Below are positions 1 to 5,193 of a stretch of DNA of 5,193 nucleotides, piece by piece. Each line of letters opens with the position of its first letter. Positions within the stretch are counted from its first letter, which is position 1. Below the pieces are notes generated by a model, which had not been told where the DNA came from, made no database searches, and worked only from the letters and a program-made list of their open reading frames with translations. Source of the stretch: a virus (taxonomy: Duplodnaviria > Heunggongvirae > Uroviricota > Caudoviricetes); the IMG/VR virus record IMGVR_UViG_2897358383_000001, positions 1 to 5,193 of that record. One strand, written 5' to 3'. The position numbers were made by a program, and so were the translations under genes.

Positions 1-1
1 C

Positions 2-328
2 CCAACGTTAAAATTACCTGATTTACGCGGTGAGTTTATCCGTGGTTGGGATGATGGGCGAGGTGTGGATGCGGGAAGGGTCATCTTAAGCATACAGGGG
101 TGGTTAACAGGAAGTCATTATCATAATATTCGGTCATGGGACGCGTGGGATAACACGGTATTGGTGCCAAATGACAGAGGGGGGGATAGCCTGTTGTCGA
201 CAGATAACGCCGTCCAAGAAGGAGCGATTAATGGTAAATTTACCAGTCAATACAGAACGGAGTTATCTGGGGGGAATGAAACCCGCCCACGTAACATTGC
301 CTTCAATTATATTGTGAGAGCAGCATAA
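2..328 (+). CDS. Tail-fibre protein, C-terminal variable (receptor-binding) cassette A; 5' end lies upstream of the window
   Basis: Frame is open from position 2 to TAA at 326-328 (the GTG at 65 in the ORF track is internal). Translation PTLKLPDLRGEFIRGWDDGRGVDAGR...ETRPRNIAFNYIVRAA carries the Mu S / P1 S-type motif and the same C-terminal 16-mer as the - strand cassettes. Its stop overlaps the next start (TAATG). Confidence 0.8.
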   Translation, partial: PTLKLPDLRGEFIRGWDDGRGVDAGRVILSIQGWLTGSHYHNIRSWDAWDNTVLVPNDRGGDSLLSTDNAVQEGAINGKFTSQYRTELSGGNETRPRNIAFNYIVRAA

Positions 329-938
329 TGGATAATGCGATATTAAATAGCGAACTTATAGCCATACAGGCAGGAAACATTATCGTTTATAACTATGATG
401 GTGGTAATCGGGAATATATTTCTGCATCAACTGAATATCTTGCTGTTGGCGTTGGTATTCCGGCACATTCTTGTTTGGATGCTCCAGGCTCACATAAAGC
501 AGGTTATGCGATTCTCCGTTCAGAGGATTTAAGTTCATGGGAGTATGTGCCAGATCATCGTGGCGAAACTGTCTATAGCATTGACACAGGGAATCCCGAA
601 GAAATCACGGTGTTGGGTGACTATCCGGAAAATACAACCACTATCGCCCGCTAACACCATACGACAAATGGGATGGAGAGAAATGGGTGGTTGATACTGA
701 GGCTCAACATAGTGGCAGCTGTAGAGGCAGCAGAAACAAAACGTCAGTCATTGATTGATACTGCGATGGATTCCATTAGTCTGATTCAGTTGAAATTACG
801 GGCTGGACGGAAGTTGACGCAGGCAGAAACCACCAGCTTAACTCCGTGCTAGATTATATAGACGAGCTGAACGCGATGGATTTAACCACGGCACCAGATC
901 TCAACTGGCCTGAAAAACAACTTTCTACAGCCAGTTGA
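328..938 (+). pseudogene. Tail-fibre assembly chaperone (Tfa/U-like), reading frame interrupted at least three times
   Basis: ATG at 328 overlaps the cassette A stop. Frame 1 (328-654) gives MDNAILNSELIAIQAGN...ENTTTIAR*. The protein then continues in frame 3 (657-~710, PYDKWDGEKWVVDTEAQH), frame 1 (~709-852, VAAVEAAETKRQSLIDTAMDSISLIQLKLRAGRKLTQAETTSL) and frame 3 (849-938, LDYIDELNAMDLTTAPDLNWPEKQLSTAS*). The C-terminal TAPD(I/L)xWP motif is typical of phage tail-fibre assembly proteins. Breaks coincide with short homopolymers. Confidence 0.55.
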
Positions 939-948
939 TATAATTAAT

Positions 949-989
949 CCGCCCTCACAATATAATTAAATGCAATATTACGAGGGCGG
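949..989. other. Imperfect hairpin (CCGCCCTC..AATAT / ATATT..GAGGGCGG) between the convergent chaperone gene and cassette B; possible bidirectional terminator
   Basis: 8-bp GC-rich stem 949-956/982-989 with an inner 5-bp AT stem 959-963/975-979 and an 11-nt loop. It lies inside the sequence encoding the cassette B C-terminus (RPRNIAFNYIVRA) and is followed by only a short T-run (GTTTCT). Confidence 0.25.
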
Positions 990-1243
990 GTTTCTAAGCC
1001 AGCAGTACCTAAATTAGCTACGGACTGTTTATATGTTTTAAAGTTCCATAATTAGGGGCTGGCAATCCTGCATCGCTTGTGTTCCCCCATCTGATAACTC
1101 CCGTATTACCACTAGTAGCCCATGCCTCGTCAAAGTAGAAATTAATTGAGCTGTCAGTTGCTACGGTTGATTTTGACGGTAATCCGTGAGCATGATCTCC
1201 GTTGCATATCCTTGCTCGCTTAAATAGAGCGACCTGGATCAAT

Positions 1244-1447
1244 CCCGCGCCCGTCATCCCAGCCACGAATGAACTCACCACGTAAATCAGGCAATTTATT
1301 GTCGGGTTAAGCCTTTGCCAGATTTGGGTACTTTTCAGAAGAAAATGCTGCACCATTGCATTTCAGCCACCCCGTTGGAGGTGTGGCTGAGGGCCACGGA
1401 ACAGGCACACCAACAGGCAGTGCAGAGCCTTCCCCAAACCAACGTTT
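1244..1447. repeat. Direct repeat copy 1 (5' module of cassette B including crossover site)
   Basis: Aligns with 1731-1934. About 98% identical over the site-proximal ~140 bp (1310-1447 vs 1796-1934: three substitutions plus a 1-nt C-run difference), about 75% over the distal ~65 bp. Confidence 0.85.
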
Positions 1448-1454
1448 TTATGCC
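1430..1454. other. Candidate invertase crossover site (hix/gix/cix-like), copy at head of cassette B
   Basis: TTCCCCAAACC-AA-CGTTTTTATGCC. The core AAACC-AA-CGTTT resembles the AAACC-NN-GGTTT core of Hin/Gin/Cin sites; the left half is 11 nt rather than 12. Confidence 0.4.
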
Positions 1455-1924
1455 GCCCTTACGATGTAATTAAATGCGATATTTCGTGGACGGGTTTCAC
1501 TCCCGCCAGTATTACCGATACTCCCTCGTGAATGAAGTGTCGGTGATGGGATCAGACTCCCTCCTGTATTTGTGGCATCAAGTCCCCATCCTTGTGTGTA
1601 TGTTTTTTTGAAAATTGTCGCCAGCTCCCATTCATCTTTTGTGTCGTAACCATCATTGGCTACAACAATATGTCGATGCTTTTCCAGCATTCCTGTCTGA
1701 ATGCTCAATAAAGCACGTCCCGCATCCACCCCGCGCCCATCATCCCAGCCGCGAATAAATTCTCCCCGTAAATCCGGTAATTTATTGGTGGGATAAGCCT
1801 TTGCCAGATTTGGGTACTTTTCAGAAGAAAATGCTGCACCATTGCATTTCAGCCACCCCGTTGGAGGTGTGGCTGAGGGCCACGGAACAGGTACGCCAAC
1901 AGGCAATGCAGAGCCTTCCCCCAA
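1448..1924 (-). CDS. Tail-fibre variable cassette C (silent orientation, promoterless; expressed only when fused to the constant part by inversion)
   Basis: Intact 158-codon frame ...LGEGSALPVGVPVPWPSATPPTGWLKCNGAAFSSEKYPNLAKAYPTNKLPDLRGEFIRGWDDGRGVDAGRALLSIQ...ETRPRNIAFNYIVRAA*. The apparent start is a TTG immediately preceded by an in-frame TAA (1934-1936) and sits inside the crossover site, so there is no independent start. Confidence 0.75.
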   Translation of the reverse strand: MGEGSALPVGVPVPWPSATPPTGWLKCNGAAFSSEKYPNLAKAYPTNKLPDLRGEFIRGWDDGRGVDAGRALLSIQTGMLEKHRHIVVANDGYDTKDEWELATIFKKTYTQGWGLDATNTGGSLIPSPTLHSRGSIGNTGGSETRPRNIAFNYIVRAA

Positions 1925-1934
1925 ACCAACGTTT
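1731..1934. repeat. Direct repeat copy 2 (5' module of cassette C including crossover site)
   Basis: Partner of 1244-1447 in the same orientation. The diverged inverted counterpart of the distal part is at window positions 1-70 in cassette A. Confidence 0.85.
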
Positions 1935-1941
1935 TAGTCTT
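1916..1941. other. Candidate invertase crossover site (hix/gix/cix-like), outer site next to the invertase gene
   Basis: TTCCCCCAAACC-AA-CGTTTTAGTCTT, 26 bp. The left half matches the recalled gix left half TTCCTGTAAACC at 9 of 12 positions. It lies at the 5' boundary of cassette C, 55 bp upstream of the invertase ATG. Confidence 0.5.
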
Positions 1942-1995
1942 AATCCCTACCTATACCAACGATGTATTTTTAACTAAACAAAGAGGTTGTTTTTC

Positions 1996-2568
1996 ATGCA
2001 AATTGGCTACATTCGTGTGTCAACAAATGACCAAAACACAGATTTACAAAGAAATGCACTGAACTGCGCAGGATGTGAACTGATTTTTGAAGATAAAATA
2101 AGCGGAACAAAGTCAGCCAGACCAGGCTTGAAAAAGCTGCTCAGAACGTTATCAGAAGGAGATACGCTGGTTGTCTGGAAGCTGGATAGGCTTGGCAGAA
2201 GTATGAAACACCTTATCACGCTTATAGAGGAGTTGCGGGAAAAAGGTGTTAATTTCCGTAGTCTGACAGACAGTATTGACACATCAACACCCATGGGGCG
2301 TTTCTTTTTTCACGTCATGGGGGCTTTAGCAGAAATGGAACGTGAATTAATTGTTGAGAGAACACTGGCCGGACTGGCAGCTGCACGCGAACAGGGACGC
2401 ATTGGCGGACGTCGCCCGAAGTTGACAAAAGAACAACATGAGCAAATAGCGAGGTTGATCGAAAATGGCTACAGCAGGAAACAGTTGGCAATTATTTACG
2501 ATATCGGTGTATCGACGATTTATCGTTATCATCCTGTAGAGAAGCGCCAAACTCAATCTGAGCTGTAA
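1996..2568 (+). CDS. Serine DNA invertase, Gin/Cin/Pin/Hin/Min family
   Basis: 190 aa from ATG 1996 (the track start at 1987 is an upstream TTG), with AAGAGG 9 nt upstream. MQIGYIRVSTNDQNTDLQRNAL... contains the catalytic-serine motif, the conserved VVWKLDRLGRSMKHL and GRFFFHVMGALAEMERELI blocks, and a C-terminal HTH (GYSRKQLAIIYDIGVSTIYRY). Confidence 0.95.
   Translation: MQIGYIRVSTNDQNTDLQRNALNCAGCELIFEDKISGTKSARPGLKKLLRTLSEGDTLVVWKLDRLGRSMKHLITLIEELREKGVNFRSLTDSIDTSTPMGRFFFHVMGALAEMERELIVERTLAGLAAAREQGRIGGRRPKLTKEQHEQIARLIENGYSRKQLAIIYDIGVSTIYRYHPVEKRQTQSEL
2017..2080. promoter_or_regulatory. Candidate recombinational enhancer (Fis-binding sites) inside the 5' end of the invertase gene
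   Basis: Position by analogy with hin/gin/cin enhancers. Near-palindrome GTCAACAAATGAC at 2019-2031; GCGCAGGATGTGAAC at 2066-2080 fits the degenerate Fis pattern G-N2-Y-R-N2-W-N2-Y-R-N2-C; centres are about 48 bp apart. Confidence 0.3.
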
Positions 2569-2688
2569 TTCTAATGCCGCGTCGGTGTAATTTATCTTGA
2601 TAGAATAGGTACATTTATCGCGCGGCACATCAATTCGATGTATCTAGCGCCTGCTGACCGCTAATGAAAACTGTCCTCGAAATGTTGT

Positions 2689-2707
2689 CCCTAGCCCGAG
2701 ACTAGGG
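2689..2707. other. Perfect 6-bp palindromic hairpin CCCTAG-N7-CTAGGG in the invertase-downstream intergenic region
   Basis: Stem 2689-2694/2702-2707, 7-nt loop, no T-tract after it. Could be a protein-binding palindrome or a weak terminator. Confidence 0.25.
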
Positions 2708-3003
2708 TATCACCTCTGGAAAGCATACGCAGAACCTTTTTTAACCCAGGGTGCCCAGCCTTTTTGCTGCTCGCCTTATTCGCAAAAATTAGCTCACATC
2801 CTGCGCTTTCAAGTGCTTTTCACTGCATAGCTGTGTTTTGTTCATTTGTCTATATGCGTACATAGCCTATTAGCATATTTTCTGCCCACTATCGTTATTT
2901 ATTGCAAGCTACAGGTTTTAATTAACAAAACCAGTGTGTGTGGAAATCACAAAGTGCATACCGTTCTCAGATGTTGTTCAACTTACTGTTGTATAGGTAA
3001 AAA

Positions 3004-3267
3004 ATGACATTTTATGTACATATCGTGATGTTATCCCTTCTTGGTGGGGTGTATTCGTATTTGAGTGGGCTATGTGAAAACCGTTACGAGTCTTCATGCA
3101 AGAAATTGCTGGCCGAATGTATTTCCGCCGTACTTGCTGGCTTTATTGGCATGTATCTCGCGGAATATAAGGATATGAATGAAAGCCTTCAGAGCTGCAT
3201 GGTTCTTATTTTCAGCGCCAATAGCAGGCTTATTATTGAAGGTTCCAAAAGTCGGTTGAATAGGTAA
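3004..3267 (+). CDS. Small membrane protein, holin-like paralogue of the following gene
   Basis: 87 aa, AGG 6 nt upstream of ATG. Two clear hydrophobic helices (FYVHIVMLSLLGGVYSYLSGL; LLAECISAVLAGFIGMYLA) and a charged C-terminus. Aligns with the 3342-3671 product in the pattern LLxxxGGxxxxL..R..S..LLxxxxExxxAVxAGxxxxYL...ASN. Confidence 0.45.
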   Translation: MTFYVHIVMLSLLGGVYSYLSGLCENRYESSCKKLLAECISAVLAGFIGMYLAEYKDMNESLQSCMVLIFSANSRLIIEGSKSRLNR

Positions 3268-3315
3268 GTCTCTTATGCAACATAACCGGTTGAGAAGTTA
3301 CTTTGCATACCATTA

Positions 3316-3335
3316 CCTCCTGACAACGTAGGAGG
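3316..3335 (+). promoter_or_regulatory. Hairpin occluding the Shine-Dalgarno sequence of the 3342 gene
   Basis: CCTCCT (3316-3321) pairs with AGGAGG (3330-3335) across an 8-nt loop; the paired GGAGG is the only ribosome-binding site, 6 nt before GTG 3342. Confidence 0.35.
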
Positions 3336-3341
3336 GAACTT

Positions 3342-3671
3342 GTGCTTGACACACAGGAATTAGCTCCAGTTGCTATTGCGCTCCTGCTTTCAGTAATTGG
3401 TGGGATAGGCACGTTCCTGATGGATGTCCGAGACGGTCGCCAGTCTGGCAATTTGTTGGGATTGGTTACGGAGATCTTTGTTGCAGTGACAGCTGGCGCG
3501 GTGGCGTACCTATTGGGGCAACACGAGGGCTGGGAGTTATCCATTACGTACTTAATGGTAACGATAGCCAGCAATAACGGTCATGAGGTGATTTCAGGGA
3601 TGAAACGAGTGAATATCGATAGCATTCTGAATGTTCTTACAAGTTTGGTGAAAAAGGGAGGCGGGAAATGA
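3342..3671 (+). CDS. Putative phage holin (small 2-3 TM membrane protein)
   Basis: 109 aa, GTG start with strong GGAGG. TM segments LAPVAIALLLSVIGGIGTFLM and LLGLVTEIFVAVTAGAVAYLLG, a weaker third, and a Lys-rich hydrophilic C-terminus (LVKKGGGK). Stop overlaps the next start (ATGA). Confidence 0.65.
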   Translation: MLDTQELAPVAIALLLSVIGGIGTFLMDVRDGRQSGNLLGLVTEIFVAVTAGAVAYLLGQHEGWELSITYLMVTIASNNGHEVISGMKRVNIDSILNVLTSLVKKGGGK

Positions 3672-4111
3672 TTGGCTGGGGTGTATGCGTTCTTGCGTTA
3701 GCCTTAGCCGATCGCTATTTGCTAAAACGCAAGGACATCACGCATTTAGAACTTGGTGATGTGGAAATTAAACCGGGTTTCATCCGGGTGCCGTTCAAAT
3801 ACCGGTCTAAATTCCCGTTTTTGCGCGGCGCAACGGTCAGATATTGGATCCGCGATGTTCAGAAGCCGACGACAGTGATTGAAGGCGAACAACGTTGTTT
3901 GACGTCGGCTGAACAGGGCGAAAACAGTGAATGGTTGTACATACCCACTGAATATATGGGTAAAGGAGAGCGACTGTGGCATTTCAACGTCATGGTTACG
4001 CATGGCGACTCGTTCATTAACCCGTTGTATCGGATTTTCCCTGTTACTCAGCAAATCCGCAGAAGTTACGTAATAAATCTCGCACAGGATGTGTCAGATG
4101 ACGAAAAATAA
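3668..4111 (+). CDS. Hypothetical protein with N-terminal membrane anchor, translationally coupled to the holin-like gene; possible holin regulator
   Basis: 147 aa, ATG 3668 overlaps the upstream stop, AGGGAGG 6 nt upstream. N-terminus IGWGVCVLALALA is hydrophobic, the rest hydrophilic. The function is inferred only from position after a holin. Confidence 0.6.
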   Translation: MIGWGVCVLALALADRYLLKRKDITHLELGDVEIKPGFIRVPFKYRSKFPFLRGATVRYWIRDVQKPTTVIEGEQRCLTSAEQGENSEWLYIPTEYMGKGERLWHFNVMVTHGDSFINPLYRIFPVTQQIRRSYVINLAQDVSDDEK

Positions 4112-4700
4112 GTATGCAACGGTCGATTTTGACCAGGTTAATGAAAAGGGGCTGAAATCCCTTATCGCGGCGATCAATAAAACCGGTGTTACGGTAATTG
4201 AGGTTGACTCCAGCAACCGCGCAACAACGAAAGATGGCGTTAAAGTTAAAACCGCAAAGCTGGTTCTTAACGACGGACAAATTCTTGCCATACAGGTAAA
4301 CGATACTGGCGATATATCGTCTGTGAGGCTGAATGGAAAAGCTATTCCTAACGCTCAATCGCCGGATATCAAGACGCTTGGTACCGTCATGGGGCAAGCG
4401 GCCCGCAAAAACTCCGCAAAATTCCAGAAATCACTGATCGCCAAAGCGAAACGTGTTGCCAATCCGGTAGACAAGAAACCGGCAGTAAAATCCAACTTTC
4501 AGCGCCTGCAAGAGGCAAAACAGCGGAATGCTCAGGTGGTTGCCGCTTATAAATCAGCGCAGAACTCGGTGTCTTTCAATCAACAGCAGATCACTGATTT
4601 GCGGGCGAAGCTGGATAAGGAGACAGGCCGACTCAATAACGAAAAGGCCCGAAATGGCGAACTCAAACGCCGTCTTAAGCAACTGAAAGCAGGAAATTAA
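4098..4700 (+). CDS. Hypothetical Lys-rich protein with C-terminal coiled-coil-like region
   Basis: ATG 4098 preferred over 4089 (AGGA 8 nt upstream); the start lies 14 nt inside the upstream gene. 200 aa, MTKNKYATVDF...; C-terminal third is rich in K/R/Q/E/A (QRLQEAKQRNAQVVAAYK...LRAKLDKETGRLNNEKARNGELKRRLKQLKAGN). Confidence 0.65.
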   Translation: MTKNKYATVDFDQVNEKGLKSLIAAINKTGVTVIEVDSSNRATTKDGVKVKTAKLVLNDGQILAIQVNDTGDISSVRLNGKAIPNAQSPDIKTLGTVMGQAARKNSAKFQKSLIAKAKRVANPVDKKPAVKSNFQRLQEAKQRNAQVVAAYKSAQNSVSFNQQQITDLRAKLDKETGRLNNEKARNGELKRRLKQLKAGN

Positions 4701-4701
4701 C

Positions 4702-5193
4702 ATGGAACAGTTCAATATCAATAAAGGGGTGACGATCAAGCCTGGGCTTGACGTGCTTCCCCCGCCAGTGACTGATGATGAATATCGCGCATTAATGGCC
4801 GGTGAGGACCGCTATCTGATGACGGAATCCAACACCCTGGAGGAAATCGAGGCTACGTTCTTCTATGACACGCCGATCCACTGGTGTGCTACGGATTTAC
4901 TGGAGGCGATTAGTTCTACTCGTTTGCAGTTACACCGGACCATGCAGGCATTTGTCCGGGCATTGAACCAGAAGCTGAATGGTACCGGAATCTCTGCGGG
5001 GAGTGATAAAACGGGGGATGTGGCCCAGAGCGGCGCGCGCGCGATCGGCGGTGCTGAAATTGGCCGGGCACGGAACGTTAACGGGCTGCCGGTCCTGCCA
5101 GCCATTATTCCGCTCAGTGATGGTCAGACTATCAGCATTCTGTTTCATAGCCCGACAGCGGAAAACCGGATCACCAATAGCGATACGCTGGTT
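4702..5193 (+). CDS. Hypothetical protein, 3'-truncated by the window (at least 164 codons)
   Basis: ATG 4702 is 1 nt after the upstream TAA with AGGAAA 5 nt upstream. Frame is open to the window end (MEQFNINKGVTIKPGLDVLPPPVTDDEYRALMAGEDRY...). It is absent from the ORF track only because no stop falls inside the window. Confidence 0.65.
   Translation, partial: MEQFNINKGVTIKPGLDVLPPPVTDDEYRALMAGEDRYLMTESNTLEEIEATFFYDTPIHWCATDLLEAISSTRLQLHRTMQAFVRALNQKLNGTGISAGSDKTGDVAQSGARAIGGAEIGRARNVNGLPVLPAIIPLSDGQTISILFHSPTAENRITNSDTLV

Follow-up and report, generated by a model that had tools for sequence, protein, structure and literature searches.

Predicted collar-type tail-fibre tips share a 16-residue ending and one chaperone gene in a Min-type inversion array of a P1-like phage-plasmid

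The Min-type layout, in which multiple DNA inversion swaps the tips of a phage tail fibre, has been known since the early 1990s. Sandmeier, Iida and Arber reportedly described it between 1990 and 1992 as the Min system of plasmid p15B of Escherichia coli 15T-, with six crossover sites in 3.5 kilobases (kb), a length that would fit six cassettes of ~0.48 kb plus one 0.6-kb tfa gene. Here we analyze 5,193 nucleotides (nt) of viral DNA (IMG/VR record IMGVR_UViG_2897358383_000001, positions 1 to 5,193), the whole of which is called the window below. To judge from its sequence, the window covers the part nearest the invertase of a multiple-inversion tail-fibre array, of the p15B Min and e14 Pin type, in a P1-like phage-plasmid. 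It contains three alternative tail-fibre cassettes (A, B and C), one tail fibre assembly (tfa) gene and a serine invertase gene. A preliminary description of this DNA had pointed out that the three cassettes share a 16-residue ending and had interpreted that ending as a docking or maturation module that lets one chaperone serve all of them.

The window resembles the p15B Min system in its P1-like phage-plasmid backbone, in having a Min-type invertase that reads away from the array, in having several short alternative 3' cassettes of the tail-fibre gene S, each with a crossover site before it, and in its homology to e14 Pin. Unlike p15B with its reported six sites, the cassette number is variable (three in the window) and the window copy has private insertions and deletions (indels). 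P1 annotation notes place p15B homology at the same flanks, and the window invertase is 82% identical to PinE of the E. coli K-12 prophage e14 and 74% identical to P1 Cin. For the invertase of a sister plasmid, 98.5% identity to Min of p15B has been reported (PMC6906374). In the e14 Pin segment, StfE is a B-type collar cassette that ends SETRPRNIAFNYIVRAA, and TfaE is 78% identical to the window tfa product. However, e14 (StfE-TfaE / StfP-TfaP-PinE) has two cassettes of two fold classes, each with its own chaperone, and no orphans (cassettes that are not followed by tfa). The P1 Cin C-segment and the Mu Gin G-segment likewise use a serine invertase to switch the C-terminal part of tail-fibre protein S. 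The P1 cassettes differ from those of the window in being two in number, long (~520 residues) and of the Mu S type, with the endings ...WYNVAQV and ...WYNAGSI; the S and S' tips lack both the collar and the 16-mer, and each has its own chaperone, U or U'. In T4 gp37/gp38 and lambda Stf/Tfa, as predicted for the window, the collar is formed by an N-terminal segment plus a C-terminal strand, an HxH motif follows the collar half, receptor choice depends on the variable middle part and the gene immediately downstream encodes a conserved chaperone (PMC9659904; PMC12724248). In contrast to the window, T4 gp37 is a single fixed tip with no inversion and a much longer needle. Chaperone-plus-scaffold modules around variable receptor-binding inserts have been described for the gp37/Stf family (PMC9659904).

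The window matches 613 plasmid records. Complete and circular P1-like E. coli phage-plasmids that carry S, R, min, lydA/B and darA match it at 98-99% DNA identity, and the closest window-wide matches are NZ_CP023961 (L001) and NZ_CP098199 (L002).

In a six-frame translation of the window the 16-mer ETRPRNIAFNYIVRA occurs exactly three times, each time followed by A or D and a stop codon, at the ends of cassettes A, B and C (Table 1). The coordinates given in the preliminary description were off by no more than one codon (for A and B it counted in the stop codon and left out the Glu codon). The three DNA versions of the 16-mer are 77-83% identical. When the ends were compared pairwise by Nei-Gojobori counts over 48 nt, A and B differed by 6.5 synonymous and 1.5 non-synonymous changes (proportion of synonymous differences, pS, 0.57; of non-synonymous differences, pN, 0.04), A and C by 11 and 0 (pS 0.93, pN 0) and B and C by 7.5 and 1.5 (pS 0.65, pN 0.04). 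Synonymous sites are near saturation and non-synonymous change is almost nil, which supports the earlier claims that selection acts on the 16-residue peptide, not on its DNA, and that the cassettes are not recent duplicates. The same was seen on a larger scale. We collected 66 distinct versions of the 51-nt end from 83 loci, and the encoded residues were nearly invariant, with the codons for Pro (four codons), Arg (three to four), Asn, Tyr and Ile (both), Ala and Val varying freely. The ending RPRN(I/V)AFN(Y/F)IVRA(A) was present in all 147 collar cassettes examined that read to their stop codon without a frameshift, whether orphan or tfa-linked. Note that the first 66 residues of each cassette are as strongly conserved as the ending (pN/pS 0.06-0.12 for the first 66 codons versus ~0.04 for the end), so the C-terminus is not singled out.

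The cassettes follow one plan, a conserved 66-residue start, a variable insert and a conserved end. The PF07484 Collar domain was matched with E values of about 1e-15 by all seven intact cassettes submitted and by the S-fused cassette of L001 (eight in total). In a phmmer search of PDB sequences, the first 90 and the last 24 residues of cassette C aligned to opposite ends of 2XGF, a tip fragment of T4 gp37, and NIAFNYIVRAA fell on gp37 residues 1016-1026 (NIAFNYIVRLA), at the C-terminal end of gp37. Two stretches of gp37, residues 811-860 and 1016-1026, make up its collar domain (PMC12724248); in gp37-type tips the chain turns round at the head and returns to the collar (PMC12609058). As the last 11 residues of the cassettes align to a part of the gp37 collar, we read the 16-mer as the returning strand that closes the collar. 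The PDB search also matched T4 gp12, which ends ETRPWNISLNYIIK (…GNETRPWNISLNYIIK), and a related motif located internally in the 554-residue short tail fibre 9CUY (…AENRPKNIAVMYII). T4 gp12 needs only gp57A (PMC3004832) and keeps the ending without Tfa or gp38, which argues that the motif is first of all a fold element rather than a system-specific docking tag. Similar endings are found in P2-like fibres, in T-even gp37 and gp12 homologues and in cyanophage collar proteins. An HxH motif was seen by eye in the translations after the collar half of all three cassettes (SHYH in A, DHAH in B and KHRH in C); the KHRH of cassette C aligns with AHSH of gp37, and several other cassette types (such as the GDAIRNI type) have no HxH motif.

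A homologue search with cassette C gave only 88-96% identical proteins among the 120 listed. Three database entries (P0010, P0031 and P0081) are 256-residue collar-type tail-fibre proteins named "integrase", probably an annotation error carried over from the neighboring invertase.

To place the single tfa of the window in context we surveyed 79 loci obtained by scanning IMG/VR with the Tfa protein, together with eight complete plasmid regions (L001, L002 and six more), and mapped collar starts, endings, Tfa/U/U' homologues, invertase and S in all of them. Only cassette A is followed by tfa in the window, as the preliminary description had it; cassette B ends against the tfa stop codon and cassette C ends within a crossover site. 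Twenty-four loci are Min-type arrays of three to nine collar cassettes each (three in the window and in L002, up to nine elsewhere), with S fused in frame to a cassette, and 23 of them contain exactly one tfa, the exception being L017. In nine complete arrays of three to nine cassettes, no second Tfa/U/U' homologue was found within 9 kb. About 55 loci of other prophages have a different arrangement, one collar cassette with a 77-83% identical tfa and, beside it, a non-collar cassette that brings a distinct chaperone of its own (examples are e14 StfP-TfaP, L047 and the P1-type S-U pair of L037). Taken together, the number of chaperone genes seems to follow the tip fold classes rather than the number of cassettes. 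This also changes the meaning of the contrast with P1. That S and S' each have a chaperone of their own was correctly noted, but the difference appears to be one of fold class, as the P1 tips are not collar tips.

Tfa proteins of this family are found with many inserts. Clustering of the inserts gave 21 types, of which 16 were found directly before this tfa family. C-type cassettes were orphan in 18 cases and directly upstream of tfa in 15 (15 of 33). B-type cassettes were orphan in eight cases and tfa-linked in three (3 of 11; these are the cassettes of L053, L059 and L069, which share an insert cluster with cassette B), in addition to StfE-TfaE of E. coli K-12 e14. The tfa genes adjoining B- and C-type cassettes in other prophages are 77-80% identical to that of the window. 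Tfa proteins behind unrelated inserts can be up to 96-98% identical, and the lowest pairwise Tfa identity was 73%; P1 U and U' are only 55% identical. These comparisons suggest that this Tfa family does not track receptor specificity. The promiscuous pairing of Tfa and insert, together with one tfa per array, gives comparative support to a shared chaperone, and a single chaperone family plausibly serves all cassettes.

Two loci of the survey have unusual arrangements. In the IMG/VR contig L017 (8565-10609) the A-tfa unit is present twice, in inverted orientation, which would be either a duplication or a misassembly of two inversion states. The P1/D6-like element L037 (8055-13910) has a Mu/P1-type S-U pair and, as the alternative, a long S' with a C-type collar cassette at its end and a collar-class tfa behind it; a single invertible segment here holds two fold classes and two chaperones.

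The best explanation, and one we consider probable, is that the locus is a Min/Pin-type array of collar tips in which the 16-mer is the closing strand and one generic Tfa serves all cassettes. In this scheme the serine invertase would recombine short in-frame sites at the 5' edge of every cassette, and any cassette could thereby become the C-terminal 140-167 residues of tail-fibre protein S. Each cassette would be a self-contained collar tip composed of the 66-residue N-terminal half, a receptor-binding insert and the 16-mer strand returning as in T4 gp37, with purifying selection on the 16-mer acting mainly for fold and trimerization. Because all cassettes share the collar scaffold, one generic Tfa of the Caudo_TAP family would suffice; tfa travels with cassette A, and its product would act in trans on any collar cassette that has become joined to S. 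We infer that Tfa recognizes the conserved scaffold and is needed for every cassette. Such a system would shuffle many receptor-binding tips onto one fibre shaft, and it is widespread. The tips would be modular, each with a free insert set in a conserved collar scaffold and with one generic chaperone family for all, which could be useful in engineering P1-type or other collar-type fibres toward new hosts. The idea of one chaperone per cassette is thereby corrected, the data being in line with one for each tip fold class.

The proposal of the preliminary description, that the 16-mer is a dedicated Tfa docking or maturation tag conserved since one chaperone must recognize all cassettes, was half right: a shared chaperone is plausible, but the 16-mer is not peculiar to one-chaperone systems and would be a fold element first. 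The tag fits the presence of the 16-mer in all cassettes of arrays that have one tfa, the translational coupling of tfa to a cassette end and the view that fibre folding begins at the C-terminus, with gp38 believed to gather the C-terminal ends (PMC3004832). For the folding of gp37, lambda Tfa is able to stand in for T4 gp38 (PMC9659904), and by analogy this chaperone work fits a conserved fibre end that acts in chaperone-assisted folding. However, the one-chaperone arrangement does not explain the ending, which is kept where each collar cassette has its own tfa (the two-cassette loci and e14), in gp12 and, as a related motif, internally in 9CUY; moreover, the gp37 equivalents are a structural part of the collar (PMC12724248) and conservation is equally strong in the N-terminal 66 residues. 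We therefore judge a dedicated tag unlikely. Still less likely, in our view quite improbable, is that tfa serves cassette A only, B and C being silent relics or able to fold with no chaperone at all. It is true that tfa is always physically coupled to A, that B is never co-transcribed with tfa (both are convergent in one invertible unit) and that B is frameshifted in the window. Yet the related plasmids and loci that were examined have B- and C-type cassettes in intact form, with pN/pS well below 1; B was found fused to S in L009 and L087; and the adjacent tfa that B- and C-types have in other prophages suggests that they need one.

A third possibility is that the ending is conserved by an effect at the DNA level, through crossover sites, gene conversion or recent duplication. 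The last codons do have a second role. The tfa ATG overlaps the stop codon of cassette A (TAATG), and tfa-linked cassette ends read GTGAGRGCNGCATRATG, with a Shine-Dalgarno-like GAGR seven to eight bases before the stop-overlapping ATG. In orphan cassettes the final GCATRA is joined directly to AAACGTTGGTTTGGGGGAAGG, where the next cassette has its crossover site, and the last Ala codon and the stop codon belong to that site. The Arg of IVRAA (Arg14; window 317-328 and 1448-1459) is AGG or AGA, which are rare codons, in all 66 versions and never CGN, whereas CGN predominates at both Arg positions of RPR (61 and 62 of the 66). With AGR forming a predicted tfa ribosome-binding site, and GCA plus stop overlapping either the ATG or a crossover half, the final two or three codons appear to be constrained also as RNA or DNA. 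The other 13 codons are near synonymous saturation and the 66 DNA versions encode the same peptide, and the crossover site begins only at the final codons. For codons 1-13 the codon counts thus refute a DNA-level explanation, which applies to the final two or three alone; as an account of the whole ending it is extremely improbable.

Orphan cassettes look like cassette-tfa units with a crossover site in place of tfa. The site GCATRA AAACGTTGGTTTGGGGGAAGG stands before every cassette in L001 as well as at orphan cassette ends and resembles P1 cix (AAACCTTGGTTTAAG); its extent of 26 base pairs is inferred by analogy with the cix/gix/hix sites. The stop codon of cassette B is 5 nt from that of tfa, on the opposite strand. 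Cassette C ends within a crossover site: its last Ala codon and its stop codon form part of the outer half of the site at 1430..1454. The two crossover sites of the window, both on the minus strand, are inverted relative to the expression-site copy, which is located upstream of the window and was observed in L001 and L002.

Several observations weigh against one Tfa that serves all cassettes by recognizing their scaffold. Mu Tfa binds its fibre through a non-conserved N-terminal domain and its conserved C-terminal domain drives trimerization, according to PMC9608196 (citing North 2019), which also describes Tfa proteins as modular, and this argues for tip-specific rather than scaffold binding. 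In the present family, unlike the Mu case, the N-terminal Tfa domain is conserved (73-100% identity). A PDB sequence search with the Tfa gave no match, which left no way of relating the Mu Tfa complex 5YVQ to it. Tfa identity is higher between units with the same insert (92% versus 82%), which could reflect mild co-adaptation or simply linkage. The orientation of tfa is a further difficulty. In all 23 single-tfa arrays (of the set L001, L002, L004-L024 and L083-L088) the cassettes converge on the A-tfa|B junction in the order c+...c+ tfa+ c-...c-, and every inversion between a plus-strand and a minus-strand site therefore flips the A-tfa-B core. Near-identical plasmids are found in both arrangements with different cassettes fused to S, tfa being co-oriented with the S operon in 12 of the 23 and antisense to it in 11. 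This is comparative evidence that inversion occurs. In L009 and L087 the cassette fused to S is B, with tfa convergent. The P1 late-promoter box (AAGTTACTT-N4-TANNNT, up to two mismatches) is absent inside the invertible DNA, and only LPs and LPdar match it; sigma-70 scans gave fewer matches than shuffled controls and were uninformative.

Since the lone tfa flips with each inversion, we suggest, with little confidence, that Tfa is supplied independently of orientation or in trans or that the B-arm cassettes fold without it, and that otherwise the flipping constitutes a hidden second switch. If phage from "anti" lysogens have working fibres, then Tfa would come from an unrecognized promoter or from a resident prophage (77-80% identical Tfa proteins; TfaE of e14, at the identity given above, is a candidate trans supplier), or B-arm cassettes would fold without Tfa. 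If such fibres fail, the orientation of the chaperone gene would be the hidden switch and every other inversion state would be fibre-defective.

A last point against the reading comes from the window itself, where nine 1-nt indels at 646-1432 frameshift tfa (three indels) and cassette B (six, at 1039-1432) relative to the intact 203- and 165-residue homologues. As written, cassette C is open throughout, and so is what can be seen of cassette A, which the window edge truncates at its 5' end; cassette B and tfa are not. None of the nine indels is shared by any of 183 matching plasmids. Probably they arose as consensus errors, from reads that cover an invertible segment in both orientations, or else they are very recent decay. 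The indels are confined to the invertible tfa-B stretch, and intact open reading frames elsewhere in the window suggest that no such frameshifts occur there.

Table 1 Predicted features of the window (E, E value; indels are given relative to intact homologues).
Feature	Position	Strand	Basis
Cassette A, collar-type tail-fibre tip, last 109 codons	1..328	+	99% DNA match to L001 8870-9328
16-mer ETRPRNIAFNYIVRAA of cassette A	278..325, stop 326-328	+	six-frame search, codon counts
tfa, tail fibre assembly protein (Caudo_TAP)	328..938	+	intact homologue WP_000367942; indels at 646, 714 and 833
Cassette B (e14 StfE type), ends ...ETRPRNIAFNYIVRAD (...RAD); 16-mer 947-994, stop 944-946	944..1437	-	six 1-nt indels
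Crossover (mix-like) site, 5' edge of cassette B: TTCCCC-AAACC AA CGTTTTTATGCC	1430..1454	-	sequence; recurs in L001
Cassette C, intact 158-residue collar-type tip; 16-mer 1451-1498, stop 1448-1450	1448..1924	-	open reading frame; Collar E 3e-15
Crossover (mix-like) site, 5' edge of cassette C, adjoining the invertase gene: TTCCCCCAAACC AA CGTTTTAGTCTT	1916..1941	-	sequence
Min-type serine DNA invertase	1996..2568	+	PF00239 E 2e-51 plus HTH_7
P1-type cin gene fragment	2700-2876	-	~59 first codons
P1 genes lydC/lydA, lydB, hdf and darA, right of the cin fragment			late promoter LPdar at 3295

The counterparts of the interrupted or truncated genes are intact in L001. That of cassette A encodes 152 residues with a PF07484 Collar match, the Tfa homologue WP_000367942 (L001 9328-9939) has 203 residues and matches PF02413 at E 3e-30, and that of cassette B (L001 9945-10442) has 165 residues and a Collar match. 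The first 108 residues of the frameshifted window tfa, taken alone, gave no Pfam match. Cassette A begins upstream of the window, and its crossover site and the constant portion of gene S are likewise located there.

A stretch at 2020-2078, in the 5' part of the invertase gene, resembles a recombinational enhancer and matches 83% of 59 nt of the P1 cin enhancer. Between min and lydC there is a cin fragment together with its upstream region, 62% identical to Min, and this contains an enhancer-like stretch of its own (2787-2849) with an 89% DNA match to the P1 cin enhancer. The fragment fits an ancestral Cin system that was replaced by Min. Upstream of it, the predicted -10 hexamer of the P1cin promoter is changed from TAAAAT to TAAAAC, the last T having been lost, and P1cin is not proposed as the source of leftward transcription.

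In L001 the constant part of S (4023-6872) contains 12 Phage_fiber_2 repeats. The length of S ranges from 1950 to 3183 nt among near-identical plasmids (L083-L088), which points to expansion and contraction of the fibre-shaft repeats.

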